From positions 106-64,105 of the forward strand of contig JAYUPL010000007.1 of NCBI GenBank assembly GCA_043760135.1: DNA of 64,000 nucleotides, in the 5' to 3' direction. This DNA is from Candidatus Parcubacteria bacterium. GTDB taxonomy: Bacteria; Patescibacteriota; Minisyncoccia; Phycocordibacterales; CAIZLB01. A model generated the notes under the pieces. It ran no database searches, was not told the origin of the DNA, and saw only the letters and a list, made by a program, of their open reading frames with translations. Both the position numbers and the translations under genes were made by a program. Of the stretch, positions 3,473 through 60,278 are shown piece by piece. Numbering within the stretch: position 1 is the first letter of the stretch; each line of letters opens with the position of its first letter.

Positions 3473-3721
3473 ATTTGACAATAAGGCTTGCTACAACTAT
3501 ACTAAAATCAGTTTTGAGACTTTAAAACTTCTCTAAGTGCAGAAATTCGGCTACTGCCACCTACTTCGTAAGAAGTTGTTGAGATGGGGATTACGTCGTT
3601 CCCTAGAGAAGTTTTAAGTTCTTAAGATAAATTTGACACTCAGATATTGATCATGATACATTTAAATTACTACTAATGACGCTAGATACCTTCTCTAGTT
3701 GGCTCACTGCCTCGATTGGTA

Positions 3722-4207: not shown

Positions 4208-4269
4208 CCACCAATACTACCAATATCAACATCAAGAAAACTTAAAGAAATTCCAAAGAAAAGATCAAG

Positions 4270-6050: not shown

Positions 6051-6384
6051 TCTCAAAAATCTCCTGCCTATGCTTCTCACCCTTATCGATCTCAAAATGT
6101 AAAAATGGGAGTATACCAACTCTTGTTTTTTTCTTTATATCATTTCGTATATCAGTCACATTTCTTGTTAAAAAGTCTATCACCGCATCTTCCTTATTTT
6201 CAGGTAATACAGAAACTCGGATTGTAACATTGTTACTCCTATCAGCTTGTTCTATAGAGGTGATAGTGATCAATGATTGACCTCCTGAGTTACGTGAAAT
6301 ATACTCATCAATTGTCTTTCTAAAAATTGACTCAGCCCGTCCTTTTGTTACTCTTTTATCTCTATGGTTGTTTTCTTTTTTCAT
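6043..6384 (-). CDS. rbfA: ribosome-binding factor A
   Basis: ~113 aa; position immediately downstream of infB; RbfA-like pattern 'VTIRVSVL...EDAV...TRVGILPFLHFEID'. Confidence 0.6.
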   Translation of the reverse strand: MKKENNHRDKRVTKGRAESIFRKTIDEYISRNSGGQSLITITSIEQADRSNNVTIRVSVLPENKEDAVIDFLTRNVTDIRNDIKKKTRVGILPFLHFEIDKGEKHRQEIFEII

Positions 6385-6394
6385 ATATTTTAAA

Positions 6395-8608
6395 TTATTT
6401 TTCTATTACAGAGAATGCAGCTATAACATCACCTGTTACGATTTCTATTTTTGCTTCGATCATCAAACCACACTCTGTATCAGCTTCAACACTCTTAACT
6501 TGTGAACGTGCATGTTGCAATTCAACTATCTCTCCACGACCGATTTCATTATCTCGTCTCATAATTTTAATCTTATCTCCTAGATTGATCTTTCCTGTTT
6601 CAACTTTACCTCCAAGAACTTGTTTTGTTTTATTGGCATTGAAAATCTTAAGAACCTTAAGAGTACCATGACTTTCTTCTTCAAGAATTTTAGGTGCTTT
6701 TGATCGTGCTTCATTTTCCAACCATTCTGAAAGTTTATAGATAATATCAAATGTTTCAATTTTCAAATTCAATTGATTGGCTAAATTTTTAGCAACGTTA
6801 TCAACTTTTGTGTTATATCCAACAATAACAGAGTCTTTACTTCCTTGAGCAAGTTTTATGTCATTTTCGTTGATGTCTCCAGTTTCAGCTCGAACGATTC
6901 TTAGCTCTATGTTTTCAAATTTAATTTTAGCAATTTCTTGTTTAACAGCGTCAAGTGTTCCAACAGAATCTGTTTTCAACACAATAGGGAGTGTCCAATT
7001 GTTATCAACTTCAAGACCGTAAAGTGCACGAATATTTGCGGGAATTTTTGCAGCAGGAACTTTACCTTCATTGTTGACTTCATCTTCTAGTATTTGCATT
7101 TTCTTTTGCTCTTCAGCAAGGAGCTCTGCTGTCTCTTTGTCTTCACACATGATACAGATATCGCCAACTTTTGGGGTCTCCACCCAACCAATAAGTCGCA
7201 CAGGTTGTCCTGGTTCAAAAGTTTTTTGAGCCTTACCTTCAAAATTTTCTATAATTCGAACAGGGGAGATAGCGCCACCTGAAACTATAAATGATCCAAC
7301 TTTCAATGTCCCGTTCTTAACAATCATTGTTGCATGAATTCCTCTTATCTTGTCTCTACCAGATTCGATTACAATACATTCAGCAGGAACATCGTACGCC
7401 GCTTTGATATCAGCCACTTCAGACATCAACATAATCATATCCAATAGATCACTTACACCATCTCCGGTTTTTCCTGAAAAAGGAATAAATGAAATATCTC
7501 CTCCGTACCCTTCAACAAAGATATTGTTTTCTGCTAATGATTGTTTTGTCTTCTCTAGGTCAGCCCCAACTTTGTCAATTTTTGATACTCCGATAAAGAA
7601 AGGAACATTTGCATCTTGAATTGATTTTAGCGCATCGAGTGTTTGTGGTTTAACTCCGTCTTCGGCAGAAACAATAAGAATGGCAATGTCGGCAGATCTT
7701 GCTCCACGATCGCGCATACTTGTAAATGATTCGTGCCCAGGTGTATCAAGGAATGTAATTTTTCCATCATTGTGATTGATTTCATATGCAGACATTTTTT
7801 GAGTAATACCTCCAACCTCACGGTCAGCAATGTTTGATTTTCTGATGTAATCCAATAATGTTGATTTACCATGATCAACATGACCCATGATAATAACCAC
7901 TGGATTTTTTGAACGTATATCTAATCCATCTAGTACCTGTATGGTTTTAACTAGATTGTTTGATCTTCCGCTAATGCGTGTTTTTAATGTAGCAGCCTTT
8001 TTAACTTTAGCAACCCTGGGTCTCTTGTAATATGGTATGTACTCAGTACGAGGTGCAATGTCTCTTTTTGCGAATGGTTTTCTCGGTGTTGATGTTCCTG
8101 TGGTTGTATCTTTACTTTTATTATTTATAAATGTCTTAGCAAATGCAATACCTCTCTCTTCTATTTTTTTCTTCTCATCTTCTTTCTTTTGTAAATCAAT
8201 TTTTTCTTCTTTCGTGATCACTTTTGATTTGAAGAGGGTAGGGGAATATTTTGGAACTGGCTTATGTTCAGGTTTTACTTCCTCAACTTTTTTCTCTTCA
8301 GGTTTCACTTCTACTACAGGTTTGTTTTTATTTTCATAAAATTTAGATGCGTTTTCGAACCAATTATTTTGCTCTTCAACTTTGGTTTTTCTTGTATCTT
8401 CAACTTCCTTACTTACAGCAAAAGTTCTCGAGCTAGTTCTTGGTGCTACAGTTATGGTCTCTTTTGTTGCAGTTTTTTTACTTTTAGTTTTACTTTTTAT
8501 CTCATCTGCCGGCTCCGGTGCCTTATTATCTCCAAAAACGCTCCCAAAAGCATTGCCAAAAACCCCTCCAAATGCGCTATCGTCGTTTTGATTTTTATCC
8601 ATTATCAT
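6395..8608 (-). CDS. infB: translation initiation factor IF-2
   Basis: K/E-rich N-terminus; G domain '[17 protein letters not shown]', 'DTPGHESF'; 737 aa. Confidence 0.9.
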
Positions 8609-8655: not shown

Positions 8656-9870
8656 ATGTTTTCACCATTTGGCAAATTTATCCCTCAGGGCAAGAAATAT
8701 TTCGATTATGCCTCTCAAACACCTACAGATGGGAGAGTTTTAAGGGTGGTAGAAGATGTCTCACGGAAGCTTTTTTACAATCCAGGGGCATTGTACTCAA
8801 ATGGGGTTTTGGCAGCCAAGATGTTGCAAAATGCCAGACATAAAACAGCTGATATATTTTCAGGAAAATCAAAGAATTCAGTTCATACCAATGAGATCAT
8901 CTTTACGAGTGGAGGGACCGAGTCCAACAACATCACCATTCAGGGTGTGGTTGCAAAATGGTATGAGGATCATGATTACGACTATTCAAATATTCCTCAT
9001 GTGATTATTTCAGAAATTGAACATCCTTCTTTAAATAATATTGTCGAGAATTTGAAAAAACAAAATAAAATCACATATTCTAAAATAAAAATTAATCAAG
9101 ATGGACTCGTTGATTTACAAGAATTAAAAGATGAATTGGTTAAGCACCGAAATACAATTTTGGTTTCTGTAATGTTAGTTAACAATGAGATTGGTTCTAT
9201 TCAACCTGTTCGAGACATTGCCTCATTGGTTCGAAAAGCTAAAGGGGATGATAAGTATCCATTGTTGCACACTGATGCATGTCAGGCTGTAAATTATCTT
9301 GACATACCTGTTGACAAGATGGGTGTGGATTTGATTTCTTACGATGCCTCTAAGTTTTATGGTCCAAAAAGTGTTGGTATTTTATATGTAAAAAGAGGTA
9401 CTTTGATCAATCCGATTTATTTTGGAGGAGATCAAGAATACTCTATGCGACCTGGTACAGAAAACCTTCCGGCCATTATGGGTATGGTAAAGGCATTGGA
9501 GATTGTAAATCATGAAAAGACAAAAGAGATAGAGAGAATATATAAAATGCAGCAACATATCTTTAAGAAAGTTTCGAAAATGAAAAATCTTTCAATTAAC
9601 GGATCTCTGGAGAAAGAAAAAAGAATTGTAAACAATATTAATATTTGTTTCGCCGGACAAGATTCAGAATTTTTACTTTTTAAAATGGATAAACTAGGGT
9701 ATGAAGTTTCGACTGGTACTACATGTCAGAATAAAAAGGAGGATTCAAAGTCTGTATCAGTAGAGGCTTTAGGTAATGATTGTGCTAGTTCAAGTTTACG
9801 TATCAGTTTAGGAAGGTATACAACTATGATGCAAGTGAGAGGGTTAGTTCGAGCTCTAACAAAATTGTAA
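8656..9870 (+). CDS. cysteine desulfurase / class V aminotransferase (IscS/NifS-like)
   Basis: 'TSGGTESNN', 'HTDACQAV', PLP-lysine context 'SYDASKFYGPKSVGILYV'. Confidence 0.8.
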   Translation: MFSPFGKFIPQGKKYFDYASQTPTDGRVLRVVEDVSRKLFYNPGALYSNGVLAAKMLQNARHKTADIFSGKSKNSVHTNEIIFTSGGTESNNITIQGVVAKWYEDHDYDYSNIPHVIISEIEHPSLNNIVENLKKQNKITYSKIKINQDGLVDLQELKDELVKHRNTILVSVMLVNNEIGSIQPVRDIASLVRKAKGDDKYPLLHTDACQAVNYLDIPVDKMGVDLISYDASKFYGPKSVGILYVKRGTLINPIYFGGDQEYSMRPGTENLPAIMGMVKALEIVNHEKTKEIERIYKMQQHIFKKVSKMKNLSINGSLEKEKRIVNNINICFAGQDSEFLLFKMDKLGYEVSTGTTCQNKKEDSKSVSVEALGNDCASSSLRISLGRYTTMMQVRGLVRALTKL

Positions 9871-10590: not shown

Positions 10591-10696
10591 TCTTCAGATT
10601 CATTAATTAAGAAAGAAAAATACTGCTCATTTGGGTAGTTTTTTTCTTGAGAGTTTCTTTATGGGAACTTTAGCTGTCTTTTATTATCATTGAAGA

Positions 10697-13000
10697 ATGA
10701 AAAAATATTTTGATCAGTGGAATAATAAAAAGAAATATATAGATAAAACTCCTAAAGATTTGATATTTAATGAAGGAGAGATTTGGTGGTCACATTTCGG
10801 TATAAATGTAGGCGAAGAGGCTTATGGGAAAGGTGGGTATTTTAGGAGACCTGTAGTTGTCTTAAAAAAGATATCACAAAACTCTTGCATAGTTGTGCCG
10901 ACAACCACAAAAATAAAAGAAGGTGAAAATTACTTCAAATTCACAACAAATGATCTAGAAAGAAGAGCTATGCTCTATCAGATAAAGTTTATTTCTGCAA
11001 AAAGATTGTATGTGAGAGAATCTGAGATGGAAAAAGAAGATTTCCTGAAATTAAAAAAATCCCTAGCAAACTTGCTAGAAATCTCTTCATGGTCACCGAG
11101 CGGACAAAAAGGACAATGCTCGGATCAGTGGGTTTCCCCTGGTATGAATCTATTTTATCAAACTCAAAATAATTGTCAAATTTCCAAGTTTTCACGTTCT
11201 GGAATCTGTGCTAAACTTCCATTTATGCAAACATCATTAGAACATAAAAGACATTCCTTGGCGCATGTATTAGCTGGAGCCATATTAAAATTATATCCAG
11301 ATGCTTTGATGACGATTGGTCCTGCTGTTGAAAATGGTTTTTATTATGATATTGATTTTCCAAGCGGATCACCAAAAGAGGAAGACTTTGAGAAAATTCA
11401 AAATGAGATGAAAAATGTTTTAAAAGCCTGGTCAACTTCAGAGCAGAGTTTTGTTCAACAAAAAGTTTCTAAAGAAGAGGCAGAAACTATTTTCAAAAAT
11501 AATTCATACAAGTTGGAACTGATCCAAGGTGTTGTTGATCGAGGTGAAGAAATAACTTTGTATGTTTCTGGGAAAGGTACAGAGTACGAATTTACTGATC
11601 TTTGTCGTGGGGGACATGTTGAGAACACAAAAGAGATTGATGAAGGTTCTTTTGCACTAGATAAGATTGCTGGAGCGTACTGGAGAGGTGATGAGAAAAA
11701 TAAGATGCTTGTGCGAATCTATGGACTTGCATTCGAAACAAAAGAAGAGTTGGATTTATTTATTCATAATAGAGAAGAGGCGAAGAAGAGGGATCATAGA
11801 AAATTAGGAAAGGAATTGAAGCTGTTTACTATTTCAGATTTAGTTGGTTCTGGGCTTCCTTTGTTTCAACCAAAGGGTGCCGTCTTGAGAGTGGAGCTAG
11901 AAAAATACTTGTGGTCAATGCATAAAGATAAGGGTTATCAAAGAGTTTGGACGCCACATCTAGCTAAAGCACAACTGTATGAAATATCAGGTCATGGACA
12001 ACATTACCTTGATGATATGTTTGCAGTGCATGGAGGAACTTCAAAAGAAGATTTTTATTTGAAGCCAATGAATTGTCCTCATCACTACCAATTATTTTTG
12101 GATAATCAATTCTCATATAGGGATATGCCAATCAAATATTTTGAACCGGCAACAATCTATCGTGATGAAAAAACAGGACAATTAGCAGGTCTAACTCGTG
12201 TTCGTTCAATCACTCAAGATGATGGGCATTTATTTTGTCGTTCAACTCAAATCAAGGAAGAGGTAAATATTATTGTAGACATTATCAAGCAATTCTATAC
12301 AACTATGAATATGATTGATGGGTATTGGGTACGACTTTCAACTCGAGGTGATGATAAGGATGTGTATCTTGGGTCTGATGAAGTGTGGGAGACTGCTGAA
12401 AGTGCGTTGAAGGATATTTGTAACGAAAATAATTTACCATACAAAGAGGGTAAAAATGAGGCAGCTTTTTATGGTCCAAAACTGGACTTTATGTTTAAGG
12501 ATGCGATTGGAAGAGAATGGCAATTGGCAACAATCCAGCTTGATTTCAATGCACCAGAAAGATTCAATCTTTCTTTTGTAAATGAAAAAGGTGAAGATGA
12601 AAGACCTGTGGTTATTCACCGTGCCATCTCTGGATCAATAGAAAGATTCTTAGGTGTTGCTATTGAGCACTTTGCTGGAGCGTTTCCGCTATGGCTTTCA
12701 CCTGTTCAATTAAAAATTGTTCCAATCGGTGAAAGACAAATAGACTTTGCACATGATTTATTTAAGAAAATAATGAAGACTGATATAAGAGTTGAGATCG
12801 ATCAAAGTAGTGAAGGACTTGGTAAAAAAGTTCGTGCATCTAAAGTTGAGAAAATTCCATACCTAGTTGTGGTAGGAGATAAAGAAATGGAATCAAATAC
12901 ATTTTCTCTTGAAGGAAGAAATGATGAGAAGATTACAGGGTTAAGTTATGATGACATGGTTAAGTTTTTACAAGATAAAATAGACAGTAAGGCTCTATAA
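10697..13000 (+). CDS. thrS: threonyl-tRNA synthetase carrying an in-frame N-terminal MazF/PemK-like domain (no TGS domain)
   Basis: Residues ~180-767 match ThrRS (editing-domain 'HSLAHVLAGAI...IGPAVENGFYYDIDFP', 'DHRKLGKEL', 'KPMNCPHHYQLF', 'RVRSITQDDGHLFC'). Residues ~1-130 match PemK/MazF ('GEIWWSHFGINVGEEAYGKGGYFRRPVVVLK') and are a paralogue of ORF 45002-45400. No stop codon lies between the two parts. Confidence 0.8.
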   Translation: MKKYFDQWNNKKKYIDKTPKDLIFNEGEIWWSHFGINVGEEAYGKGGYFRRPVVVLKKISQNSCIVVPTTTKIKEGENYFKFTTNDLERRAMLYQIKFISAKRLYVRESEMEKEDFLKLKKSLANLLEISSWSPSGQKGQCSDQWVSPGMNLFYQTQNNCQISKFSRSGICAKLPFMQTSLEHKRHSLAHVLAGAILKLYPDALMTIGPAVENGFYYDIDFPSGSPKEEDFEKIQNEMKNVLKAWSTSEQSFVQQKVSKEEAETIFKNNSYKLELIQGVVDRGEEITLYVSGKGTEYEFTDLCRGGHVENTKEIDEGSFALDKIAGAYWRGDEKNKMLVRIYGLAFETKEELDLFIHNREEAKKRDHRKLGKELKLFTISDLVGSGLPLFQPKGAVLRVELEKYLWSMHKDKGYQRVWTPHLAKAQLYEISGHGQHYLDDMFAVHGGTSKEDFYLKPMNCPHHYQLFLDNQFSYRDMPIKYFEPATIYRDEKTGQLAGLTRVRSITQDDGHLFCRSTQIKEEVNIIVDIIKQFYTTMNMIDGYWVRLSTRGDDKDVYLGSDEVWETAESALKDICNENNLPYKEGKNEAAFYGPKLDFMFKDAIGREWQLATIQLDFNAPERFNLSFVNEKGEDERPVVIHRAISGSIERFLGVAIEHFAGAFPLWLSPVQLKIVPIGERQIDFAHDLFKKIMKTDIRVEIDQSSEGLGKKVRASKVEKIPYLVVVGDKEMESNTFSLEGRNDEKITGLSYDDMVKFLQDKIDSKAL

Positions 13001-18301: not shown

Positions 18302-18635
18302 AGCCTTTGGTTTTCACGTTGGTTTATAAGGGGTTTTTTGACTTTTCCTAAATTTGCTTGTCCTTTATGAACATATTTGAATAATCCCCATATAATCGCT
18401 TGACTTTGTTTATGTTTCGTATATAATAGACACCCATACGGAATAGAAATATAACTCTCGAATCCTTGATGGATTCAAGAAAAATTTCTAAAGAAATATA
18501 CTTTGAAAATAGAATAAAGATATACATACATCACAATAGATATGTAAGAACATTGTATTGATTTTGTACAATGAGCAAGAATTAATTTTAAAATTAATCA
18601 AATCCTTTCTTTTGTTCTGTTTGAGTTTTTTATTT

Positions 18636-20160
<1,525 letters not shown>

Positions 20161-20532
20161 TATGTCACCTGATTTATCAGGTTGCATCAGATTTATAACG
20201 GTCGTTACTGATCTTTTAAGCAATTAAAATTTCAACAGTTCTTATATGCTGTCGTTCATATAAGCGAAGAAGTTCGTAAAACTTTGACATATCGGAAAGA
20301 CGGTGACTCAAACAGAACAAAAGAATTTGTTTGATTAGGTTTAGGTTAATTCAAGCGTTTCTATATTGTGATTTTGTAAAAATTATGTAATACTCAGTAC
20401 ATGATATTTTTTCCGTATGGACGGAATGGAATATTGTTTCGCTTAACTTCGCTTATGAGTTGAGCGAACGAGTCGACCCTGCCGGGAAGCTTTGCTTCCG
20501 AGGACTTCTCGACGAGAGAACAAAACAAATAA

Positions 20533-20608
20533 GCGCGCGTAGCTCAGTTGGTAGAGCGCTCGACTGATACTCGAAAGGTCCTTGGTTCAACTCCAAGCGC
20601 GCGCACCA
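20533..20608 (+). tRNA. tRNA-Ile (anticodon GAT) in the 16S-downstream spacer
   Basis: Acceptor GCGCGCG/CGCGCGC, D-arm TAGCTCAGTTGGTAGAGC, anticodon loop CTGATAC, CCA encoded. Confidence 0.8.
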
Positions 20609-20776
20609 CAAGGGTAATTCTATAATTCTAAAGAATTATATGTCGCACAAAAGGCACTTCTATTTTGATAAATCAAAATATGTCGCGCACCAGTAAAAAT
20701 AAAAATAAATCTCCGAAAGGGGATTTATTTTTTTATTTGACATCAAAACCCTACCTCTGATATACTTCAATCATCG

Positions 20777-20872
20777 GAAGCAACTCCTTATACAGGCAAG
20801 TCTGTATCGGGAATTTCCTTAGAATTGGAAGCAACCCCTTGTATAGTTTCGTCTGTATCGGGGATTTCCCTT
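20777..20872. repeat. two tandem ~48-bp imperfect direct repeats
   Basis: 'GGAAGCAACTCCTTATACAGGCAAGTCTGTATCGGGAATTTCC' and 'GGAAGCAACCCCTTGTATAGTTTCGTCTGTATCGGGGATTTCC'; would encode an 'EIPDTD' repeat on the minus strand. Confidence 0.45.
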
Positions 20873-21346
20873 GTATTAAGAAGGTCTATGATGTCAGACA
20901 TGTATATTATTTCTAAATACAGCCGATCTTTAAACATCATCGATGTATTCTTAGGATGAACACTAAAGCATCTCAATATTTCTAGTTTAGATTTTGCATA
21001 ATCGAGTAATGATGTAAAATCACCATCACCTGAAGTGAGGTACGATAGCCTGAACTTTATTTTTTTCTATATCAAGGGTAATTTTGTGAGCTATCTCAAC
21101 GTCACAATTGGCCTTTATTTTATTCTTTTCTCTATAGCTTTGTTTAAAAACAATTTCTACATCATTTTCATACAAACCTACATATAATTGCTCATGTTCT
21201 TCAAACCGAGCGGTGAAATATATTATTTTATCAGCTCTGTATTTATTTTTAAGATAAATAATTAATTCGACCATATCAAAATTCAGTCCTTGATCTCGAG
21301 CACTCAGTATAATATTGGCAGCGTCTATGTATATATTTGTTTTCAT
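20788..21346 (-). pseudogene. NYN-domain (LabA/PIN-like) protein gene interrupted by a frameshift
   Basis: ORF 21026-21346 has N-terminal 'IYIDAANI'; the hallmark 'SGDGDFTSLLDYAK' motif continues in another frame just past its stop and joins ORF 20788-20976. Confidence 0.45.
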
Positions 21347-21434
21347 AATCAGGTAATTTTAACGTAGAGGGGTTAAAGTAAATTAAAAGAAATGATAAAG
21401 AAATTCTAAACTTTTTCATGATATAATATTTCAC

Positions 21435-28150: not shown

Positions 28151-30676
28151 ATGAAAATATTTAATAATCTTAAGTGTATAGTGTTGGTATTTTTGATTAT
28201 GTTTTCTCATGTAGTTTTCGCCGCCAACCCACCTTATCCTTTTCTACCATCAGACAATGTACAAGATCCAAACTGTACACCGCTGGACTCTAACTGTTAT
28301 GTTCTTTTAACATCTTTTCAGAATGAAACAGTGACAGGACTCGACTATGCAACTTCGACTGGAATACTTTCTTTAACTTCAGGCTACAATATACCACTTA
28401 CTGCGTCGACTACTGCGTGGAATAGTGCTATCGGAGCACTAGGAGGAAGTGCACTTTTGCAAAATGGTAATTCATTTGGTACAACGCTCACACTTGGAAC
28501 AAATGACAATCAAGCTTTGAGTTTTGAGACAAATGGTATTAACAGACTCACTATCGACACATCAGGAAATATCACTGCTACAGGAACCATCACAGCGAGT
28601 TCATTTTTTGGTAATGGCTCAAACTTGACTGGTATATTTTCAACATCAACGACAAGAGGTGTTTTCTCGGCGTCTGGTCCTATTTCGTATTCAACTTCGA
28701 CTGGAAATTTTTTAATAACTCAAGCTTCGTCAACTTCAAGTGGATATCTTTCTTCAGCTGACTTTACAACTTTCCAAGCCAAAGAAGACGTCATCACTGC
28801 GTCCACCACGGCAACATACTTCCGAGGTGACAAAACCTTCAGTACTCTCGACACCTCGGCTGTTCCTGAGAATGGAAATCTCTACTTCACAAATGCTCGT
28901 GTGAATTCAATCTTGTCAGCAACAACTTCACTTCCAAACATCACCACACTCTCAGGACTCATTTCTGCAACAAACCTAGGTTCATTGGGTACGACTACAA
29001 TCGGAGTGTGGAATGCCACTCCGATTGGAGACTCATACATCACAAAGACTGGAAACTGGACAGGAATATTCGATGGACAAGAAGGAACATATTATTTGGA
29101 CAGAGCAAATCACACAGGCACACAGTTGGCTTCAACTATTTTGGATTTCGGAACTACTACAAGAAACTTACTTTCATCCACTGCAACAGGACTAACATAT
29201 TCGACCTCAACTGGAATATTTTCTTTAACTTCAGGTTACAATATACCTTTGACCGCCTCAACTACTGCATGGAATGCAAAAGTCTCAAGTCAATGGGTGA
29301 CGAGTGGTGTAAATATATATTATACAGGTGTGGCTGTTGGTATTGGGACAACAACACCAAGCAATAAATTTGTTGTAGTAGGAACGTCAACAGTTATTGG
29401 AAATTTTAACCTCAATGGTTATGTGTTGCAGGGTTCGTCAAATGGTTCACTGTTTGGGAATACAGTTAGTAATGGTATTTATGATTCCAACTTCCTTGGT
29501 GCCTATGCGGGAAATGGTGCTACAAGTACCAGTTACTCCAACTTCCTTGGTGCCTCTGCGGGACATAGTGCTACAAATGCCAGCTACTCCAACTTCCTTG
29601 GTTACTATGCGGGATATAGTGCTACAAATGCCAACCAATCCAACTTTCTTGGTTACGGTACGGGATATAGTGCTACAAATGCCAACAACTCCAACTTCCT
29701 TGGTTACTATGCGGGATATAGTGCTACAAATGCAGCTTCCTCCATATTCTTTGGGAAGAATTCTGGTTATTCTGACACTGTGAATAACACTTCTGGAAAC
29801 AAATACTCAATACTTATAGGAAACTACACCTCAACTGGTGGTTTTTCCAACTCGATATCAATAGGACAAGGTGTGGCCAACTCAGAAATTGATCAACTAA
29901 ACATTGGTCGTATTATCTATGCTACCAAAATAGGCTCATCAACCTCATCTATCTCTTCACCTTATGCCTCAGCTTCTGTCGGTATAGGAACATCTACTCC
30001 AGCCGATAAGCTTCAAGTCTATGGTGACATACGTGTAGGAACCACAGGAACAAACGGTTGTATCAAAGATTTTGGAGGAACAGGTATCACAGGAGTATGT
30101 TCATCAGATGAAAGATTGAAAACAAATGTTGTAGATTTATCAGATAATTATCTTGATAAAATGGCTAAACTTAGAGTAATATCATATAACTGGAATGATA
30201 CTGCTAAAGATTTAAACAAAGTCAATACGACTGCTACAAACTACGGACTATTGGCGCAAAATGTAGAAGAAAATTTTCCAGAATTAGTCACAATAGATTC
30301 CAATGGATATAAGCAAGTTAATTATTCACGATTACCATTATATTTAATAAAATCAATACAAGAATTGTCAAAAAAGTTTTTGTCATTTGCTGATTCTGTT
30401 ACAACTAAAGAATTAAAAACCAATAAGCTATGTGTTGATGATATTTGTGTTACAAAAGATCAGTTTAAGATGATGTTACAAAACAGTAATGTATCTCCAG
30501 TTATATATCAACAATCAGTCTCAATTCCTGCCCCAGTCCAAAATCCAGAACCTGTTGTTGAGCAAGCAATAACAACTGAAGTTGTGGCCGAAATTGCTGT
30601 ACCGATACCTGTGGTTGAGACTGCTCCTGAACCTATTGTTGTACCAGTTGTGACAGAAAATCAGTTAGTACAATAG
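28151..30676 (+). CDS. phage-tail-fibre-like secreted surface protein with C-terminal intramolecular-chaperone (peptidase S74) domain
   Basis: Signal peptide, S/T/G/N-rich repeats, five tandem 'SNFLGYYAGYSATNAN' repeats; C-terminal 'SDERLKTNVVDLSDNYLDKMAKLRVISYNWND...YGLLAQNVEENFPELVTIDSNGYKQVNYSRLPLYLIKSIQEL' matches S74 autochaperone domains; Pro-rich tail. Confidence 0.6.
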   Translation: MKIFNNLKCIVLVFLIMFSHVVFAANPPYPFLPSDNVQDPNCTPLDSNCYVLLTSFQNETVTGLDYATSTGILSLTSGYNIPLTASTTAWNSAIGALGGSALLQNGNSFGTTLTLGTNDNQALSFETNGINRLTIDTSGNITATGTITASSFFGNGSNLTGIFSTSTTRGVFSASGPISYSTSTGNFLITQASSTSSGYLSSADFTTFQAKEDVITASTTATYFRGDKTFSTLDTSAVPENGNLYFTNARVNSILSATTSLPNITTLSGLISATNLGSLGTTTIGVWNATPIGDSYITKTGNWTGIFDGQEGTYYLDRANHTGTQLASTILDFGTTTRNLLSSTATGLTYSTSTGIFSLTSGYNIPLTASTTAWNAKVSSQWVTSGVNIYYTGVAVGIGTTTPSNKFVVVGTSTVIGNFNLNGYVLQGSSNGSLFGNTVSNGIYDSNFLGAYAGNGATSTSYSNFLGASAGHSATNASYSNFLGYYAGYSATNANQSNFLGYGTGYSATNANNSNFLGYYAGYSATNAASSIFFGKNSGYSDTVNNTSGNKYSILIGNYTSTGGFSNSISIGQGVANSEIDQLNIGRIIYATKIGSSTSSISSPYASASVGIGTSTPADKLQVYGDIRVGTTGTNGCIKDFGGTGITGVCSSDERLKTNVVDLSDNYLDKMAKLRVISYNWNDTAKDLNKVNTTATNYGLLAQNVEENFPELVTIDSNGYKQVNYSRLPLYLIKSIQELSKKFLSFADSVTTKELKTNKLCVDDICVTKDQFKMMLQNSNVSPVIYQQSVSIPAPVQNPEPVVEQAITTEVVAEIAVPIPVVETAPEPIVVPVVTENQLVQ
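29485..29760 (+). repeat. five tandem 51-bp in-frame coding repeats (17-aa units)
   Basis: 'TCCAACTTCCTTGGTTACTATGCGGGATATAGTGCTACAAATGCCAAC...' repeated with minor variation. Confidence 0.75.
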
Positions 30677-34410: not shown

Positions 34411-34656
34411 TCACCGCATGCTGTTGATGGTAAGTGCGAAGAGATTGATTCGATCAGGATCAGTGAGGTAGTTTGCTCTTTCACATTGACACTGGTATTC
34501 TCTCATTCGATTATCGACGAACGTGAACTGGTCTTCGTCCTCTAGAATCACATCTTTTCTGACCCCGCAGGTAACCTCCTTAAGGAAGGTTTCCATCGCT
34601 TTTGAACTTTTTTGTTCGGCGAGTTCTCTCAGATATTGTTTTGCTGGCATGCTCAT
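34411..34656 (-). CDS. hypothetical protein (81 aa, Cys-containing), higher G+C
   Basis: ORF track only. Confidence 0.3.
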   Translation of the reverse strand: MSMPAKQYLRELAEQKSSKAMETFLKEVTCGVRKDVILEDEDQFTFVDNRMREYQCQCERANYLTDPDRINLFALTINSMR

Positions 34657-34804
34657 AATTGTATGGTGTTCGTTGTTTATTTACTCAAATTAAAACAGTG
34701 TATATATTATATCAATATTAGATATATTTGTCAAGTATGGACATTCCACTATCAAAAAATGGTATAATTATAATTATTAATAAATAAATAATAAAAATAA
34801 ACAT

Positions 34805-34978: not shown

Positions 34979-35143
34979 ATGGATCGGAAAAAGCTTGTGA
35001 TGTTTGGAACTATTGTTGGAGGATATGCGGGTAGTTATATCCCGGCTCTTTGGGGTGCAGGTGGTTTGTCTATGTGGGGGCTTTTATTCGGAGCTATGGG
35101 AAGTTTGGTTGGAATTTGGGTAGGGTTTAGGTTGGGTGAGTAA
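34979..35143 (+). CDS. possible small glycine-zipper membrane peptide (54 aa)
   Basis: Hand translation gives 'MDRKKLVMFGTIVGGYAGSYIPALWGAGGLSMWGLLFGAMGSLVGIWVGFRLGE'. Confidence 0.3.
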   Translation: MDRKKLVMFGTIVGGYAGSYIPALWGAGGLSMWGLLFGAMGSLVGIWVGFRLGE

Positions 35144-35202
35144 ATTCAGGTTTTCTTTAGAACTTCTTAATCAAAACTTTACCACCTCTCTGGTAAAGTT
35201 TT

Positions 35203-35730
35203 TTGATGGAATACAGAAAACCTAAAAAATCACTTTTTATATCAAAACAAATTAGAAATTTAAATAGTGAGGAAAAGATATATCTCGAGAATTTAAAAAA
35301 AGTTTTAAACAAAGAAAGTGATATTGAAACCATTGGGAATATTCCGGGTTATTTATGTTTTGATAAAAAAGAAAGACCCTTAATTTTATCTCGAGAGATT
35401 GTCGATAAGATAGAAAATGATCATGGTTCAATTTGCTCTCAAAATATGATTATTAACATTTTTGAATGGGAATATGCAACTACTAATGTATTAGGTAATC
35501 CTGATAAAATAAATCTTATTAAAAATATACCCGATTCTGATAATTATCTCTTAGTGGCAGCTGTTAGGATTAATGGCTTTTTTGTACTTACTCATTTTGA
35601 AATTGAAGCTAAAAATGGTAACAATTTAAAACGCCTCCTCGACAGAGGGAGCGTTTTAAATAGGGTCTCTTCTATAGCCTGTACTACCAATCAAGACTTG
35701 AATTCAAGTCAATCTAGAGAAGTTGTCTAG
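35203..35730 (+). CDS. hypothetical protein, copy B of the ~160-aa paralogous family (C-terminally extended)
   Basis: Full-length alignment to copies A and C. Confidence 0.5.
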   Translation: MMEYRKPKKSLFISKQIRNLNSEEKIYLENLKKVLNKESDIETIGNIPGYLCFDKKERPLILSREIVDKIENDHGSICSQNMIINIFEWEYATTNVLGNPDKINLIKNIPDSDNYLLVAAVRINGFFVLTHFEIEAKNGNNLKRLLDRGSVLNRVSSIACTTNQDLNSSQSREVV

Positions 35731-35833
35731 CGTCAAAGGTAATGGTTGTATTTTAGCAAAAGTTTGATTTATGTCAAATAATACACAAGTATTTCCTTTT
35801 GACTTTTTACCTCAAATAATATAGGTTTTATAT

Positions 35834-43820: not shown

Positions 43821-44276
43821 ATGAATTACTGGCTCATGAAATCTGAAGGAGATTGCTATCCTATCGAACAACTTAAAAAAGATAAAGTCACTCCATGGGG
43901 CGGTGTGCGCAACTATCAAGCACGAAACTACATGAAAGAGATGGAAGTTGGAGATATGGTTTTATTCTATCATTCAAGTTCAAAACCCACTGGAGTATTT
44001 GGATTGGCAAAAGTTGTAAAAACTGCACATCCTGATCTGACCGCTTTTGATAAAAGAGATGATCATTATGATGAACGATCAACAGTAGAAAAACCCATCT
44101 GGGAATGTGTTGATGTACAGTATGTTTCAACATTTAAAGAACCTATCACATTAGATGAAATGAAAAGATATCGAGAGTTAAGCACAATGAAATTATTTCA
44201 AAAAGGATCAAGATTGTCAGTTATTCCAGTGACTGAGAAGGAGTACAATTTTATTGTTTCTTTGGGGAAAGTTTAG
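43821..44276 (+). CDS. EVE (PUA-like) domain protein
   Basis: 'MNYWLMKSEG...GGVRNYQARNYMKEMEVGDMVLFYHSS...GVFGLAKVV'. Confidence 0.7.
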   Translation: MNYWLMKSEGDCYPIEQLKKDKVTPWGGVRNYQARNYMKEMEVGDMVLFYHSSSKPTGVFGLAKVVKTAHPDLTAFDKRDDHYDERSTVEKPIWECVDVQYVSTFKEPITLDEMKRYRELSTMKLFQKGSRLSVIPVTEKEYNFIVSLGKV

Positions 44277-44321
44277 AATTTCTTTATGAGAACTTTATGT
44301 TGGTTTTGGTATTATTTTTGA

Positions 44322-44801
44322 ATGCTAATCGAAAAACCAAAAAAGCCTGCATTTATCCACGGACCTATCCTACCTCTGAATAAAAGAGAGGAGATGTACT
44401 TGTGGAAAATAAAAAATATTATCAAATATAAAAGCACTCATGAAAATATTGGGTATGTACCCGAATCTTTATCAAAGGACGCTAAAGTCAGACCCCTTAT
44501 TTTATCTCGAAGTATATTACATAAAATTCAATCTGATCATGGACATATTTGTCCAGAAAACATGATTATCAATGCACATCGGTGGGATTATATCGTTTCG
44601 TATCCATATAACAATGTAGACAAGATTGTGCTGGTAAAGAATATACCGAATAGTCGCAATTATTTTGTGTTAGCAGCTAACAGAAATAATGGTTTTTATA
44701 TTGTGACACATTTCGAAGTCGAAGCGATGACTGGAAAAAACTTAAAACGTCTCCTCGGTAGAGGAAACGTTTTAAGTAGGGGGCCTTCTATATGCCTATA
44801 G
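44322..44801 (+). CDS. hypothetical protein, copy C of the ~160-aa paralogous family
   Basis: Full-length alignment to copies A and B; 200 bp upstream of the MazF-like gene. Confidence 0.5.
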   Translation: MLIEKPKKPAFIHGPILPLNKREEMYLWKIKNIIKYKSTHENIGYVPESLSKDAKVRPLILSRSILHKIQSDHGHICPENMIINAHRWDYIVSYPYNNVDKIVLVKNIPNSRNYFVLAANRNNGFYIVTHFEVEAMTGKNLKRLLGRGNVLSRGPSICL

Positions 44802-45001
44802 TACCGATCTGAGACTTTTTCAAGTCAGTATGAGAAGGTGTCATGTGTCATCGGTAATGGTTGTATTATACGCTTGGGTAAACCAAAGTCAAATTGTAGA
44901 ATATTTTGATCATTTCAATGAAATATAATTTTATTTTTTCTTTGGTAAAACTTTAAAATCTCTTTATCAGAACTTTATCGGTATTTTTATAAAATTGATG
45001 G

Positions 45002-45400
45002 ATGAATAACAAAAACTATGATGAATGGAATATATTAAAGAAAAGAATAAATAAATTATATAAAACCAAACATCCAAAAATAAGAGAAGTTTGGTGGGTA
45101 AATATCGGTTTGAATATAGGCTCTGAAATATATGGAAAGGGTTCAAAATATTTAAGACCTGTATTGGTGTTAAAGGTAAATGATGAAAGTTTTTTAGGTA
45201 TACCATTATCATCAAAATTAAGGAAAAGCAAACAAAGATTCATTTTGAAAACAAATGATCAGAAGCTTCATTCCTTGGTTTTTAATCAAATTAAGATTTT
45301 GGACAACAGGAGATTGTTGAGTAAGAAGTATATTATTTCAAAAAATAAATTTAGGAAAATAATCCGTAAATTTAAAAATACGATAACCGTCAATGGTTAG
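45002..45400 (+). CDS. MazF/PemK-family toxin-like protein
   Basis: 'REVWWVNIGLNIGSEIYGKGSKYLRPVLVLK' matches the MazF/PemK core; paralogue of the ThrRS N-terminal domain. Confidence 0.65.
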   Translation: MNNKNYDEWNILKKRINKLYKTKHPKIREVWWVNIGLNIGSEIYGKGSKYLRPVLVLKVNDESFLGIPLSSKLRKSKQRFILKTNDQKLHSLVFNQIKILDNRRLLSKKYIISKNKFRKIIRKFKNTITVNG

Positions 45401-45502
45401 TTGACGGTTATCCGGCCCGAAGGCTGAGGAGCATAAGCTCAACTCGTACCTTCATTGTATCAAATTATCTTTTGCTGTCAAATTTGGTATAATACTCATC
45501 AT

Positions 45503-49133: not shown

Positions 49134-50006
49134 TTATAGTCTCATTTCCTTCTTCGGAAACATTTGAGACAATATAACCGCTGTGAAAATTATTCCAAAA
49201 AGCACAGCCAAAGATATTGCTGAGCTAATATGAATATGGAAAATTCCAAGCATCATTTTCCCTCCAATAAAAAATAGGATGATTGCCAAAGCCTTCGTAA
49301 TAAGATGAAATTTATGAAGTATATATTCAACAACGAAGAACAATGACCGTAGACCTAAAAGAGCAAAAGCATTTGCAGTAAAGATCACAAATCTATTTTG
49401 ACTAATAGCAAACGAAGCGGGGATAGAATCAACGGCAAAAATAATATCAGAAAATTCTATCATCAAGAGACATAGGAAGAGATTGGTGATGTGAAATTTC
49501 TTGTTAATCGTAATAAAAAACTTCTTGCCATGATGTCCATCAGCAATTGGTAAAACTTTGTTTAAAAATTTTAGTATTTTATTTGTATCTAAATTTTTAT
49601 CTTTCTCATTTTTCTCTTTTAATATTTGAATACCAGTGTAAATAAGAAGTGCACCAAAAAGATACAATACCCATTCAAATCTTTGTACGATTTCAAATCC
49701 TAACCCTATAAAAATGGCACGAAATACAAATGCCCCCATAATTCCTAAAAATAATACTCGATGCTGATATTTTTCCTCAACTTTAAAATAAGAGAATATT
49801 AAAAGCATGATAAAGAGGTTATCAATAGAGAGCATGTATTCAGTTATATACACAGAGAACCATTGAAACCCAATCTCGGCACCGCGAGTAAAGTAGACAT
49901 AGATACCAAAAGCAACAGCGGTCATCACCCACATTAAGGTCAGTAAAATAGATTTTTTTATTTTGTTCATTGGTATATTAAAACATGTTTGAAGTGGATT
50001 TGACAA
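49134..50006 (-). CDS. TerC-family integral membrane protein
   Basis: Multi-TM; 'LSIDNLFIMLLIF' TerC-like motif. Confidence 0.5.
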   Translation of the reverse strand: MSNPLQTCFNIPMNKIKKSILLTLMWVMTAVAFGIYVYFTRGAEIGFQWFSVYITEYMLSIDNLFIMLLIFSYFKVEEKYQHRVLFLGIMGAFVFRAIFIGLGFEIVQRFEWVLYLFGALLIYTGIQILKEKNEKDKNLDTNKILKFLNKVLPIADGHHGKKFFITINKKFHITNLFLCLLMIEFSDIIFAVDSIPASFAISQNRFVIFTANAFALLGLRSLFFVVEYILHKFHLITKALAIILFFIGGKMMLGIFHIHISSAISLAVLFGIIFTAVILSQMFPKKEMRL

Positions 50007-50158
50007 ACTTTAACAACTTGCTAAAATAAATATGTAATCTGAAGGACAGAAAATTAACAATCGGCTTGCTGCGGACTTCGCTGAAAATGCTTAGTACTTA
50101 TGGATGAAATGTTCTCATTTTTAATAAATGATCCCTGCCGTCATCCCAGACTACAATT

Positions 50159-50190
50159 AAAAACACCACCGGTTATCCGGTGGTGTTTTT
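50159..50190. terminator. rho-independent terminator overlapping the 3' end of ORF 50173-50505
   Basis: 'AAAAACACCACCGG ttat CCGGTGGTGTTTTT' perfect hairpin. Confidence 0.6.
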
Positions 50191-50505
50191 AATTTTCTTA
50201 TAATGCATTGTCACTATTTCAAGATGATCTTCGGTATGTTCGAGCACTATTCTGATTATCGGTATGGATCTTATGCTTTCAGAAAAATCTTTTGAAAAAT
50301 AAAGCCTATTACTATTTGTTTCCAACGAATTATAATTACTTAGAACATTTTCAATGTTGTCGATAATTAAATAAAGCCTTCCTAAAATATATTCATTTTC
50401 AGATCCAACTAATTCTCCAGACCTGCTCTCAACAAAATGCTTCAAGGCCCTCTTGGAAATATATACATCTTTGTCCTCCAGTCCGCATACAAACACCAAT
50501 CCCAA
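50173..50505 (-). CDS. hypothetical protein (110 aa)
   Basis: ORF track only. Confidence 0.35.
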   Translation of the reverse strand: MGLVFVCGLEDKDVYISKRALKHFVESRSGELVGSENEYILGRLYLIIDNIENVLSNYNSLETNSNRLYFSKDFSESIRSIPIIRIVLEHTEDHLEIVTMHYKKIKNTTG

Positions 50506-50716
50506 AAAATCTGCAATTAATTCACCTTTTTTAGATGGAAATATTCGTTAACTAGTTTTTTAATTGTAATTATATTTGTGTTAATTCTTCAATTTTACAA
50601 AACCACCCATAAACTCCCCATAAAGAAAAACCGAAGATTTCCACAAGAAAAGATGAAGAAAGGTAAAACCAGCCTCAAATTTTGCATTTTCTCAAAAAAT
50701 ATGTCAAAATGGTGCG

Positions 50717-53268: not shown

Positions 53269-53615
53269 ATAATTTCAGTATTTCTTAATAATTTCAATAT
53301 CTACCTAGATAACATATAAAGAAAAAAGGTCGTCATCCTAACGGTCGACGCCTTTTTTCAAACTAGCCTTAGTTATTATAATATCAAAAAAATATTTTAT
53401 GTTAAATCTGCTAAAACATAAAATAAAAATACTCAACTAAGAGTATCTTTATCCATGCGACCGGCGCCAGCTTGTGAAGATGAGGATTGTTTAAATCCGG
53501 CGGTCTAACGGACCTTTTTCTCTTCAGCTTGTTACGCTATATATTATACTTGTGGAGAAAGGTAAGTCAAATACCATTCATAAACCCTCAAAACTGTGTT
53601 ATACTGCAAATAATT

Positions 53616-55247
53616 ATGCAAAAAACAAGCAACATCCTCACAAAATTAAAAGCTGCTCCCACCTACGTCTGGACCAATAAAAAGAAAAAAAGAGTGTGGA
53701 TTCCAGCTACGCTTATCGTCATTGCTTTGACTTTCAGTCTTTTTGGGGGAAATAAGTCAGCAGACGTGTCAACATATAAAGTCGAGGCTAAAGAATTTGT
53801 ACAAAATGTATCACTCACTGGAAAGGTGATAGCGGCTAAAAATGTAGACATGGGGTTTGAGACTTCGGGTCGTATCAACAGGGTAAATTTTAAAGTTGGC
53901 GACCGCGTTAAAAAAGGACAAGTCATCGCATCACTTCAAAATGGCGATGCGGTTTCTAACCTTCAAAAGAGTTATGCATCTGTATCAGCTCAGAGTGCAC
54001 GACTTCAAGATACTCAAAATGGTTCACGTCCTGAAGAAATTGCTATTGCAGAAGGTGATCTGACTGGTGCACAAAATGATCTTGATTTGTCTAAACAAGT
54101 TCTTGAAGCTGAGTTGCAAAACATTTACAATAAGGCTGATGAAGCTATTCGTTTTAAAATAGATAACACATTTACTAATCCACGCAGTGTAAATCCACAA
54201 TTTAACTATTCTATAGATCAAAACGCAAATTTAAAGCAAAAGTTATCAGAGGATAGATTGAAACTAACTGAGACTTTTGTAAAATGGAATGGTAAATTTA
54301 ATATCAGCAATATTGAAGAAGTAAAAGTATACATCATTCAAGTTCAGAATTTTATAAATGATGTTAATACTGCGATGTCTATAGTTGCCGAAAAATCAGT
54401 TTCAACCGATGCAAATTATGCAACTGTTCAATCAAACAAAGTCGATGTATCACTTGCTCGTACCAATTTTTCAACTGCCAACAATAGCTTCAACCAAGCG
54501 CAAATTGCATATAAAAACAGTCAAAATCTTTTGACTCGAGCACAAAATAACTTGAAATTAAAAATGTCTGGTGGAACAGCAACTCAGATCGGTATCCAAC
54601 GGGCTGATCTGCAAAGTGCAAATGCCGGTGTAAATAACGCTCGCGCAATTATAGCCAAAACTCTCATAACGGCACCATTTGATGGAGTGATAACTAAAGT
54701 TGATGTGAAGGAAGGGGAAATATCTTCACCAAATACACCAGTTATTAGTTTGCTTAATGACGGAGAATATCAAATAGAAACATTCGTTTCGGAAAATGAT
54801 ATTGCAAAACTAAAAGTAGATCAGACAACAAAAATATCATTAGATGCGTACGGCCGCGACGTATTTTTTAACGGTTTGATTATTTCTATCGACCCAGCTG
54901 AAACAATAAAAGATGGAGTTTCAACATATAGAACTAAAATACAATTTATCAATAAAGATGAACGTGTTAAAAGTGGTATGACTGCAAACATTGATATTGA
55001 AACTGATCGAAGACCAAATATTATTTCTATCCCTCAAGCAGCAGTGATTCTTTTGAAGGGAATAAAGAAAGTGTATGTACTCACAGATACTTCATGTGTG
55101 TTGGATAATTCATGTGCTACCAATTTCAAAAAAATGAAAGATGTACAAGTTGTTGAAATAAAAACAGGAGAAATAAATAATAATGGCGATATAGAAATAA
55201 TTTCAGGATTAGAAAATAATCAAACAATTATTTATGGAAAGAAATAA
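53616..55247 (+). CDS. HlyD/MacA-family periplasmic adaptor (membrane fusion protein) with very long coiled coil
   Basis: N-terminal TM, biotin-lipoyl-like 'VTLTGKVIAAKNVDMGFETSGRINRVNFKVGDRVKKGQVIASL', long coiled coil, C-terminal beta domains. Confidence 0.65.
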   Translation: MQKTSNILTKLKAAPTYVWTNKKKKRVWIPATLIVIALTFSLFGGNKSADVSTYKVEAKEFVQNVSLTGKVIAAKNVDMGFETSGRINRVNFKVGDRVKKGQVIASLQNGDAVSNLQKSYASVSAQSARLQDTQNGSRPEEIAIAEGDLTGAQNDLDLSKQVLEAELQNIYNKADEAIRFKIDNTFTNPRSVNPQFNYSIDQNANLKQKLSEDRLKLTETFVKWNGKFNISNIEEVKVYIIQVQNFINDVNTAMSIVAEKSVSTDANYATVQSNKVDVSLARTNFSTANNSFNQAQIAYKNSQNLLTRAQNNLKLKMSGGTATQIGIQRADLQSANAGVNNARAIIAKTLITAPFDGVITKVDVKEGEISSPNTPVISLLNDGEYQIETFVSENDIAKLKVDQTTKISLDAYGRDVFFNGLIISIDPAETIKDGVSTYRTKIQFINKDERVKSGMTANIDIETDRRPNIISIPQAAVILLKGIKKVYVLTDTSCVLDNSCATNFKKMKDVQVVEIKTGEINNNGDIEIISGLENNQTIIYGKK

Positions 55248-59701: not shown

Positions 59702-59965
59702 CTATCTATACACCTCATCATGCGTGCCTATCTGTATCATCTCTACCAAAGTATACCCATCCTCCTCTCTAAATATTATACGTATATTGTAATTTACTCG
59801 AATTGATTTATACCCAACAAGCTTTCCTGTGAGGTTATGATTCATAAGTGAAATGTCAAAAGGATTTACTTCAAATTTTTCTATAGCTATATTTACTTTT
59901 CTTTGAAGTATAGAGTTGAGTTTTCTATATTGCTTTTCAAAGGTAGTATTAAAAATAATCCTCAT
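59702..59965 (-). CDS. RelE/ParE-family type II toxin
   Basis: 87 aa; '...KSIRVNYNIRIIFREEDGYTLVEMIQIGTHDEVY' RelE/YafQ-like C-terminus; begins 1 nt after the antitoxin stop. Confidence 0.6.
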   Translation of the reverse strand: MRIIFNTTFEKQYRKLNSILQRKVNIAIEKFEVNPFDISLMNHNLTGKLVGYKSIRVNYNIRIIFREEDGYTLVEMIQIGTHDEVYR

Positions 59966-59966
59966 A

Positions 59967-60278
59967 TTATTTTTTCTTCTTAAGGTAGGCTATGGCACTT
60001 TTGGCATCTTTGAACGTAGGAGATCGAGAAGTGTCCTTTGCGGCTTTTAGTATCTGATCTTCTTCTTTTTTGGAATAACTATAATACCAACTATCTGTAT
60101 CATCTATTACACTAAAAGGTATACCTTGTACCATATTCATCTTTTTAAGAAACATACGAAAAGCAGTAGGAAAATCAAGTCCTAGTTTATCCAAGAGCTT
60201 TTCACTGTCTTTTTTGAGTTTTGTGTCTATGCGTATTTGTATGTTTGTTGTCATAAATGTAGTGTAATGCATATGCAT
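59967..60278 (-). CDS. RelB/DinJ-family antitoxin
   Basis: 'NIQIRIDTKLKKDSEKLLDKLGLDFPTAFRMFLKKMNMVQGIPF' ribbon-helix-helix DinJ pattern. Confidence 0.6.
   Translation of the reverse strand: MHMHYTTFMTTNIQIRIDTKLKKDSEKLLDKLGLDFPTAFRMFLKKMNMVQGIPFSVIDDTDSWYYSYSKKEEDQILKAAKDTSRSPTFKDAKSAIAYLKKKK

Follow-up and report, generated by a model that had tools for sequence, protein, structure and literature searches.

A direct-repeat promoter motif shared by toxin-like genes in a Candidatus Parcubacteria contig, with predicted small-RNA genes facing their 3' ends

What is the sequence that recurs upstream of several toxin-like genes in a Candidatus Parcubacteria genome? The DNA analyzed, called the window here, is a stretch of 64,000 nucleotides (nt) from contig JAYUPL010000007.1 of a Candidatus Parcubacteria bacterium (Patescibacteriota; assembly GCA_043760135.1). 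An initial annotation had placed a promoter- or operator-like motif of about 45 nt in front of five toxin-like genes. Three belong to a narrow protein family, termed famX here, one is a MazF/PemK-like gene and one is a MazF-ThrRS open reading frame (ORF). Two meanings had been offered, co-regulation by one DNA-binding factor and a common cassette boundary. The reading favored here, with a probability of roughly 0.6, is that of a co-regulated toxin promoter. It would be specialized and leaderless and would head the protein gene of compact two-gene cassettes resembling type I and type III toxin-antitoxin systems.

The five reported copies were present at their coordinates. The upstream regions aligned gap-free when anchored on the start codon, and the motif proved larger than first described. 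It consists of an array of three to five direct repeats, WWWCTTTA, with a period of 11 bp between about -72 and -22 relative to the ATG. The array is followed by TTTTGnTAnnAT (an extended -10 at -19 to -7), exactly 6 nt and the ATG. The core given initially was real but the motif is longer than the 45 nt allowed for it, both in its 3-5 units reaching from about -72 and in the conserved TTTTGnTAnnAT. The direct repeat CTTTATC-AGAA-CTTTATC described in the 45002 copy is there. The distance from the end of the -10 hexamer to the ATG is 6 nt and not about 9 nt. One famX gene had been started at TTG 35203. The ATG at 35206 is its correct start and restores the spacing common to all copies.

The motif is more than a chance likeness. 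The 18-mer core TTCTTTATSAGAACTTTA matched five times at up to three mismatches where 0.51 matches were expected, and none of 100 shuffles reached five. A 48-nt matrix covering -54 to -7 scored the true sites at 34-59, compared to a maximum of 8.9 in shuffled windows (per 64 kb). It added a site at 50592-50639 on the minus strand (score 42.7), with ATT where the ATG was expected. A 33-nt matrix added a site at 21371-21414 on the minus strand, upstream of a NYN-like ORF. The shorter matrix also matched the known sites again with a shift of 11 nt, as a tandem repeat should give. The window total is therefore seven copies rather than five, and an eighth lies just past its right end before a third MazF gene. 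The seven copies are as follows.

44257-44321, plus strand: promoter of famX gene 44322; units from about -65 to -22, extended -10 TGGTATTAT (hexamer 44310-44315), 6 nt to ATG; matrix score 59.1.
44937-45001, plus strand: promoter of MazF/PemK gene 45002; repeat array, -10 TAAAAT, 6 nt to ATG; matrix score 49.3.
10632-10696, plus strand: promoter of MazF-ThrRS ORF 10697; repeat array, -10 TATCAT, 6 nt to ATG; matrix score 42.1.
35141-35205, plus strand: promoter of famX gene 35206; repeat array, -10 TGGTAAAGT, 6 nt to ATG; matrix score 40.0.
4208-4272, minus strand: promoter of famX gene 3722-4207; repeat array, -10 TGGTAGTAT, 6 nt to ATG; matrix score 34.2.
21347-21414, minus strand: sixth copy, NYN-like gene; array 3 nt farther from ATG, -10 TAAAAT; 33-nt matrix score 31.3.
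50586-50650, minus strand: seventh copy, apparently decayed cassette; motif, TAAAAT and 6-nt spacing intact, ATT in place of ATG; 48-nt matrix score 42.7.

The motif was then followed into other genomes. A scan with the famX alignment, taking one genome per species, gave 14 loci from about nine Patescibacteria assemblies. In these loci the famX homologues were preceded by the motif with its ATG distance unchanged, and some other genes there had it too. Public collections were scanned independently of any gene with a 22-base skeleton that matches 13 of the 23 known sites. This returned 45 metagenome contigs and no viral contigs, and most matches followed the consensus at the unspecified positions too. 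A loose 17-base half-motif was also tried on viral contigs and gave chance matches only (best matrix score 19.5). The pooled total was 52 distinct sites. The main families downstream were famX (17), DUF3800 (14, in three subfamilies), MazF (11) and NYN (2). Two uncharacterized families followed, of about 130 amino acids (n = 5) and about 274 amino acids (n = 4). There were also a few singletons, among them a helix-turn-helix protein (judged LAGLIDADG-like by sequence only), a ChlI/ComM-like protein and, with weaker scores, MurC-like genes. The DUF3800 domain has been described as having an RNase H-like fold (PMC10910872).

The ATG distance was constant even among the sites found without requiring an ATG. 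A fixed distance across 52 sites, from many Patescibacteria contigs and before several unrelated families, points to selection acting on a cis-regulatory element and away from common descent, and upholds the proposal of a promoter- or operator-like motif specific to these genes. The alternative of a cassette boundary, in which the motif would be the conserved 5' end of a mobile or duplicated module and alike by descent or as a recombination site, is improbable. In its favor, each unit is compact, at about 550-650 bp, and the units are found at separate loci with housekeeping genes on either side. Signs of decay are seen as well: the NYN gene is frameshifted, one copy has lost its ATG and the related loci L006 and L008 have orphan small-RNA genes. 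One module of the six is flanked on each side by a 10-nt repeat. Against this, the proteins of paralogues have diverged to 33-57% identity, unrelated families have the motif and its orientation and ATG distance are invariant. Ungapped pairwise identity between the window copies was 0.66 in the repeats compared to 0.31-0.37 in the flanks and coding starts, with the flanks at background level. No terminal repeats and no consistent target duplications were found, although no dedicated inverted-repeat search was made at the boundaries, and the neighboring genes scanned against Pfam had no recombinase domain. The genes form compact cassettes but the boundary reading offered initially gains no support from terminal repeats or target duplications.

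A motif of this kind could still be the commonest promoter of the organism, which would have undone the initial proposal. In the window it stands before only seven of about 60 genes. The relatives of the window proteins come from metagenome-assembled genomes of Parcubacteria, Paceibacteria and Patescibacteria, and the window holds a 16S rRNA gene, seven tRNA genes and housekeeping genes. Ordinary promoters in it are extended -10 boxes of the TGATATAAT type or TTGACA-N16-18-TATAAT pairs. A RelB/YafQ-type type II toxin-antitoxin pair (59702-60278, minus strand) had no match to the motif matrix, so the motif is not a feature of all toxin genes. The short spacing between -10 and ATG had been taken to mean leaderless transcripts. 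The spacing does fit such transcripts but it is not peculiar to the motif genes. TAnnnT ended 4-10 nt before the start codon in 32 of 58 genes and a Shine-Dalgarno-like sequence was found before one of the 58. Leaderless expression is thus predicted to be the rule in this genome and no special property of the motif genes.

It is very improbable that the array is instead an RNA element in the 5' leader of transcripts starting farther upstream. Two copies do have TATAAT or TACAAT immediately before the array (at 44245 and 44925). This hexamer is missing from the other copies, the consensus lacks conserved complementary segments and the motif had no Rfam match. Conservation of the -10, with a constant 6 nt to the ATG, is in keeping with a function at the DNA level.

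The repeat structure held over the 52 sites. Autocorrelation was 0.50 at a lag of 11 and 0.55 at a lag of 22, compared to 0.31-0.41 elsewhere. The most informative positions were the CTTTA cores, the T-run at -17 to -15 and the -10. Near-invariant bases were T-50, C-40 (which carries 2.6 bits), T-39, T-38, T-28, T-27, A-25, T-12, A-11 and T-7. All sites had TAnnAT at -12 to -7 and the majority had G-14, making the box an extended -10. TTGACA was matched at just one to four of six positions in the promoters of the motif cassettes while the TGn of the extended -10 was kept. The repeat array stands in place of a -35 box. The units at -43 to -33 and -54 to -44 were conserved at least as well as the proximal unit. 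The footprint of the 45002 promoter was also conserved compared to locus L006.

In PhoB/PhoP promoters, direct repeats of 11 bp run from about -60 to -22, stop 10 bp before the -10 and take the place of the -35 box, with a requirement for two to four units. The motif resembles the pho boxes of these OmpR-family proteins in having at least two 11-bp repeats that end 10 bp before the -10. It differs in the repeat itself, which is CTGTCAT or TTAACA in pho boxes and WWWCTTTA here, and in the genes served, which are for phosphate uptake in the one case and predicted nucleases in the other.

A site for an alternative sigma factor would also explain a co-regulated set. The proximal (G/A)AACTTTA would then be a -35 of the extracytoplasmic function (ECF) type, 16 nt from the -10, and the genes a sigma regulon. 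The GAACTTT of the window copies resembles the ECF -35 GGAACTT, the spacing from AAC to the -10 is indeed 16 nt and the clade has an ECF sigma/anti-sigma pair 3.5 kb from a famX cassette in locus L011. However, about half of the sites lack the C of the AAC (C-29 is present in 11 of 23), and the -10 is of the housekeeping type TGnTAnnAT and not the CGT of an ECF promoter. The distal units at -43 to -33 and -54 to -44 are conserved, which a sigma factor would not need. In L011 the ECF gene lacks the motif and is preceded by a separate promoter, GTAAT-N16-CGT. A sigma regulon is unlikely on this evidence. The L011 pair, at 5729-7166, comprises an ECF-type sigma factor gene and a putative anti-sigma gene.

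Slightly less likely again is an architecture that needs no factor, in which the phased T/A-rich repeats would act as UP-element-like or curved DNA at a constitutive level and all regulation would fall to antisense RNA. A promoter with an extended -10 can function in the absence of a -35, the repeats are rich in A/T and in helical phase, and searches for a regulator came up empty. The invariant C/T positions (C-40) and base-specific cores nevertheless point to sequence-specific recognition. The array reaches -22, well within the position where UP elements end, and no array precedes the other leaderless genes of the genome.

The motif covers one side of each gene only. What is predicted to be the other half of the system, a set of convergent antisense RNA genes, had been missed in the initial annotation. 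The DNA just 3' of the famX stop codon was as conserved as coding sequence, which was noticed when the MazF upstream region was compared with that of an orthologue. Scanning for promoters revealed a near-consensus one at this position, on the opposite strand, and a 17-bp terminator hairpin lay within the 3' codons of famX. The layout with a convergent promoter was present at all seven window genes. When the sigma-70-type matches of the window were ranked, these promoters accounted for seven of the top 27 and for six of the ten with at least 11 of 12 positions. On the opposite strand, 16 of 17 famX genes had TTGACA-16-TAnnAT at 20-105 nt after the stop codon. The same position was occupied in all ten MazF genes with sequence available and in nine of the ten DUF3800 genes with enough flank. 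The background rate of such matches was 0.41 per kb per strand. The stretch from the convergent promoter to the stop codon holds a conserved predicted RNA that is specific to the protein family, and the terminator of this RNA falls at or within the 3' end of the protein-coding gene. The predicted RNA genes in the window are as follows.

44733-44892, minus strand: RNA gene of famX 44322; TTGACT-16-TATAAT (44892..44865), RNA 44864..44733, terminator hairpin 44777..44740 within famX codons.
35617-35777, minus strand: RNA gene of famX 35206; TTGACA-16-TAAAAT with TG, RNA 35749..35617.
3633-3790, plus strand: RNA gene of famX 3722-4207 (minus strand); TTGACA-18-TACATT with TG, RNA 3663-3790.
45372-45481, minus strand: RNA gene of MazF 45002; TTGACA-16-TACAAT with TG, three hairpins, terminator 45412..45382 spanning the MazF stop; z -5.3.
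11040-11179, minus strand: RNA gene in the MazF-ThrRS linker; TTGACA-16-TAAAAT with TG, hairpins and U-run; z -2.9.
20737-20870, plus strand: RNA gene facing the NYN gene; TTGACA-18-TATACT with TG; 3' end uncertain.
50000-50205, plus strand: RNA gene of ORF 50173-50505; TTGACA-16-TAAAAT with TG, 18-bp terminator 50155-50194 overlapping the ORF stop; z -5.6.

The RNAs of the window that do not belong to famX folded well below shuffled controls. Each famX RNA sequence folded independently to one shape, a three-way junction followed by the terminator. A covariance model found exactly one copy per famX gene, with 17 full matches at 63-146 bits, four of them outside the seed alignment. In the structural alignment 95.2% of cells were paired compared to 37-51% in slid controls. 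Changes on both sides were seen in 13 of 31 pairs (50 cells) compared to 0-3 in slid controls, and none of 500 shuffles reached the observed covariation values. Covariation support for the predicted famX RNA is strong. G-U cells outnumbered A-C cells (46 compared to 6), which assigns the predicted structure to the strand antisense to famX. Folding energy was tried as a strand test and was undecisive (-490 compared to -465 kcal/mol summed). The MazF- and DUF3800-associated RNAs had compensatory pairs too, among few sequences. Covariance models of Rfam 15 (gathering score and E ≤ 1) matched only tRNA and rRNA.

The terminator hairpin of the famX RNAs (44740-44777, and also 35634-35651 and 3752-3777) lies within the codons of NLKRLLGRGNV, the most conserved famX peptide. 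That stretch would thus be under both protein and RNA constraint. The ORF of some famX paralogues reads on through the RNA gene, giving variable C-termini.

Apparent orphan small-RNA genes or cassette remnants without a toxin were seen at about 5265-5390 in L006, at 9520-9660 (minus strand) in L008 and at 3475-3630 in the window. In L006 a MazF-type RNA lies between famX and MazF. In L008 a DUF3800-type RNA adjoins the NYN cassette. In the window, the famX 3722-4207 cassette has next to it a second strong promoter (3475-3503, plus strand) and a motif-like remnant.

The layout was compared to known toxin-antitoxin types. Type I loci such as bsrG/SR4, txpA/RatA and par RNA I/RNA II likewise use a strong promoter to make a convergent small RNA, and this RNA overlaps the toxin gene at its 3' end. 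Their toxin promoter is likewise weaker and specially controlled, as in the LexA-controlled tisB and symE. An antisense RNA with its own promoter and a terminator overlapping the gene is accordingly predicted here as in type I. Type I toxins are small hydrophobic or membrane peptides, however, whereas the proteins here are soluble, enzyme-like and of 130-190 amino acids, which is not the type I pattern. The RNAs also differ in being highly structured and family-specific. Masking of a ribosome-binding site would be impossible with the leaderless mRNAs predicted here, unlike in type I.

Type III systems and AbiF/RCd22, in which an RNA antitoxin binds the toxin protein, share with these cassettes an endoribonuclease-type toxin and a dedicated structured RNA. 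The type III RNA is a tandem repeat upstream on the same strand, whereas the RNA here is a single unit, convergent and downstream. Tandem repeats in the NYN-associated RNA were considered and were not confirmed by Tandem Repeats Finder. This program gave no array of RNA-unit length; the one repeat that it listed, a 6-bp TAAAAA run, lies at 20694-20709 and is not part of the predicted RNA. The abiF RNA motif, a gene-associated structured RNA that was long an orphan, acts as an RNA antitoxin (bioRxiv 10.1101/2025.04.15.648962). An operator of a type II operon was rejected because no ORF lies between promoter and toxin, no MazE-like gene adjoins and the repeats are direct and not inverted.

Structured RNAs also occur beside DUF3800 genes. 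Eleven of them, DUF3800-I to -XI, as well as drum and skipping-rope have been described, with intrinsic terminators, next to such genes on either strand and with function unexplained (PMC5737381, Weinberg et al., 2017). None of those Rfam families matched here at E ≤ 1. The layout here differs too in serving MazF, NYN and famX genes as well, with a shared promoter motif.

If the motif is a co-regulated toxin promoter, a single trans-acting protein would bind along the repeats and contact RNA polymerase, the promoter having no -35, and all cassettes would be switched together by that factor. The factor would be an activator or other polymerase-contacting protein rather than a simple repressor, since the spacing is invariant in about 50 sites and the operators of repressors usually vary in position. 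LexA represses the type I toxins tisB and symE, and by analogy a repressor released under stress is a possible alternative. The convergent RNA would be made constitutively from its consensus promoter and would keep the toxin off. It may do so as in type I, through base pairing to the 3' portion of the leaderless mRNA, or as in type III, through binding to the protein.

Several points weigh against this reading. The start sites, the small RNAs and the toxicity are all predictions from sequence. Pfam scans gave no transcription-factor domain among the window proteins. Searches with PhoB and AgrA by tblastn found nothing in 547 kb of related contigs, the genomes being incomplete. The extended -10 could drive the promoter without any factor. 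The 274-amino acid family, the 130-amino acid family and the MurC-like genes have true motif sites without a convergent promoter, so promoter and RNA are not strictly coupled. The name of toxin comes to famX from association alone, no domain or fold relative being detectable.

A broader proposal is tentative and somewhat short of an even chance. This clade of Patescibacteria would carry many cassettes (at least eight in about 70 kb here) of enzyme-size nucleases, each checked by a convergent structured RNA and all under one dedicated regulator, as a genome-wide toxin regulon. It would explain the DUF3800-associated RNA motifs as antitoxins. No prior description of the motif, or of RNA-paired MazF or NYN cassettes in Patescibacteria, was found in the papers searched or in Rfam 15. 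If true, this would be the first defined regulon and promoter class for the Patescibacteria, which are uncultured or hard to culture and whose regulation is largely uncharted. Classic type II toxins such as MazF would then be able to pair with RNA and not protein antitoxins. The structured RNAs beside DUF3800 genes, unexplained since 2017, would gain a testable function, and famX and the two further uncharacterized families would become candidate nucleases or toxins. The 48-nt matrix together with the convergent-promoter rule gives a simple detector of such cassettes for metagenomes.

The motif heads at least three unrelated protein families within the window. The genes below the seven copies are as follows.

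44322-44801, plus strand: famX gene, 159 amino acids, narrow family.
35206-35730, plus strand: famX paralogue, 174 amino acids, 52% identical to the 44322 product.
3722-4207, minus strand: famX paralogue, 161 amino acids, 57% identical to the 44322 product.
45002-45400, plus strand: solitary MazF/PemK-like gene, 132 amino acids.
10697-13000, plus strand: MazF domain fused in frame to ThrRS; MazF stop TAA now TCA, junction about 11085-11226.
20866-21346, minus strand: NYN-domain gene with a frameshift near 21040.
50173-50505, minus strand: ORF of uncharacterized function below the seventh motif copy, out of frame with the ATT.

The initial description of these genes as toxin-like agrees with the Pfam domains of the MazF and NYN genes but extends to famX by its company only. 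Among 5.8 billion proteins famX had 35 relatives. It had no Pfam or PADLOC match, and its confidently predicted structure had no neighbor in the PDB. The neighborhood of 45002 contained no adjoining MazE-like gene. The two MazF/PemK-domain proteins of the window are 33% identical to each other. The closest orthologues of the MazF-ThrRS protein are 165-194 amino acids in length and also read through the small-RNA region, and the in-frame run into thrS occurs only here. An internal leaderless promoter-like TGCTAAACT lies 7 nt upstream of the ATG at 11226. ThrRS is probably made separately, given the unfused orthologues and this internal TGCTAAACT, and the MazF-ThrRS fusion may be incidental. Residues 7-104 and 105-162 of the L008 homologue aligned to the NYN gene in different frames. 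The frameshifted NYN gene is likely a pseudogene or a sequencing error. The cassette at 50173-50650 (minus strand) appears to be decaying, with the promoter motif and convergent RNA gene intact and the ATG lost.

The window contains several further features. The 16S rRNA gene is followed by tRNA-Ile (18629-20608) with no 23S rRNA in the remaining 43 kb, and the rRNA operon appears to be unlinked or split. A near-perfect sigma-70 promoter (12 of 12 positions) at 34706-34734 on the minus strand lies 45 nt upstream of a small ORF (34411-34656). Another at 53543-53570 on the minus strand is antisense within the start of gene 53487-55247. Neither is linked to a cassette, and additional small RNAs are possible at both. 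A TraG/VirD4-like coupling ATPase and an 841-amino acid protein with a Peptidase_S74 domain (endosialidase chaperone, tail-fiber-like) are encoded at 558-3431 and 28151-30676, a hint of mobile or phage-derived material in the region.

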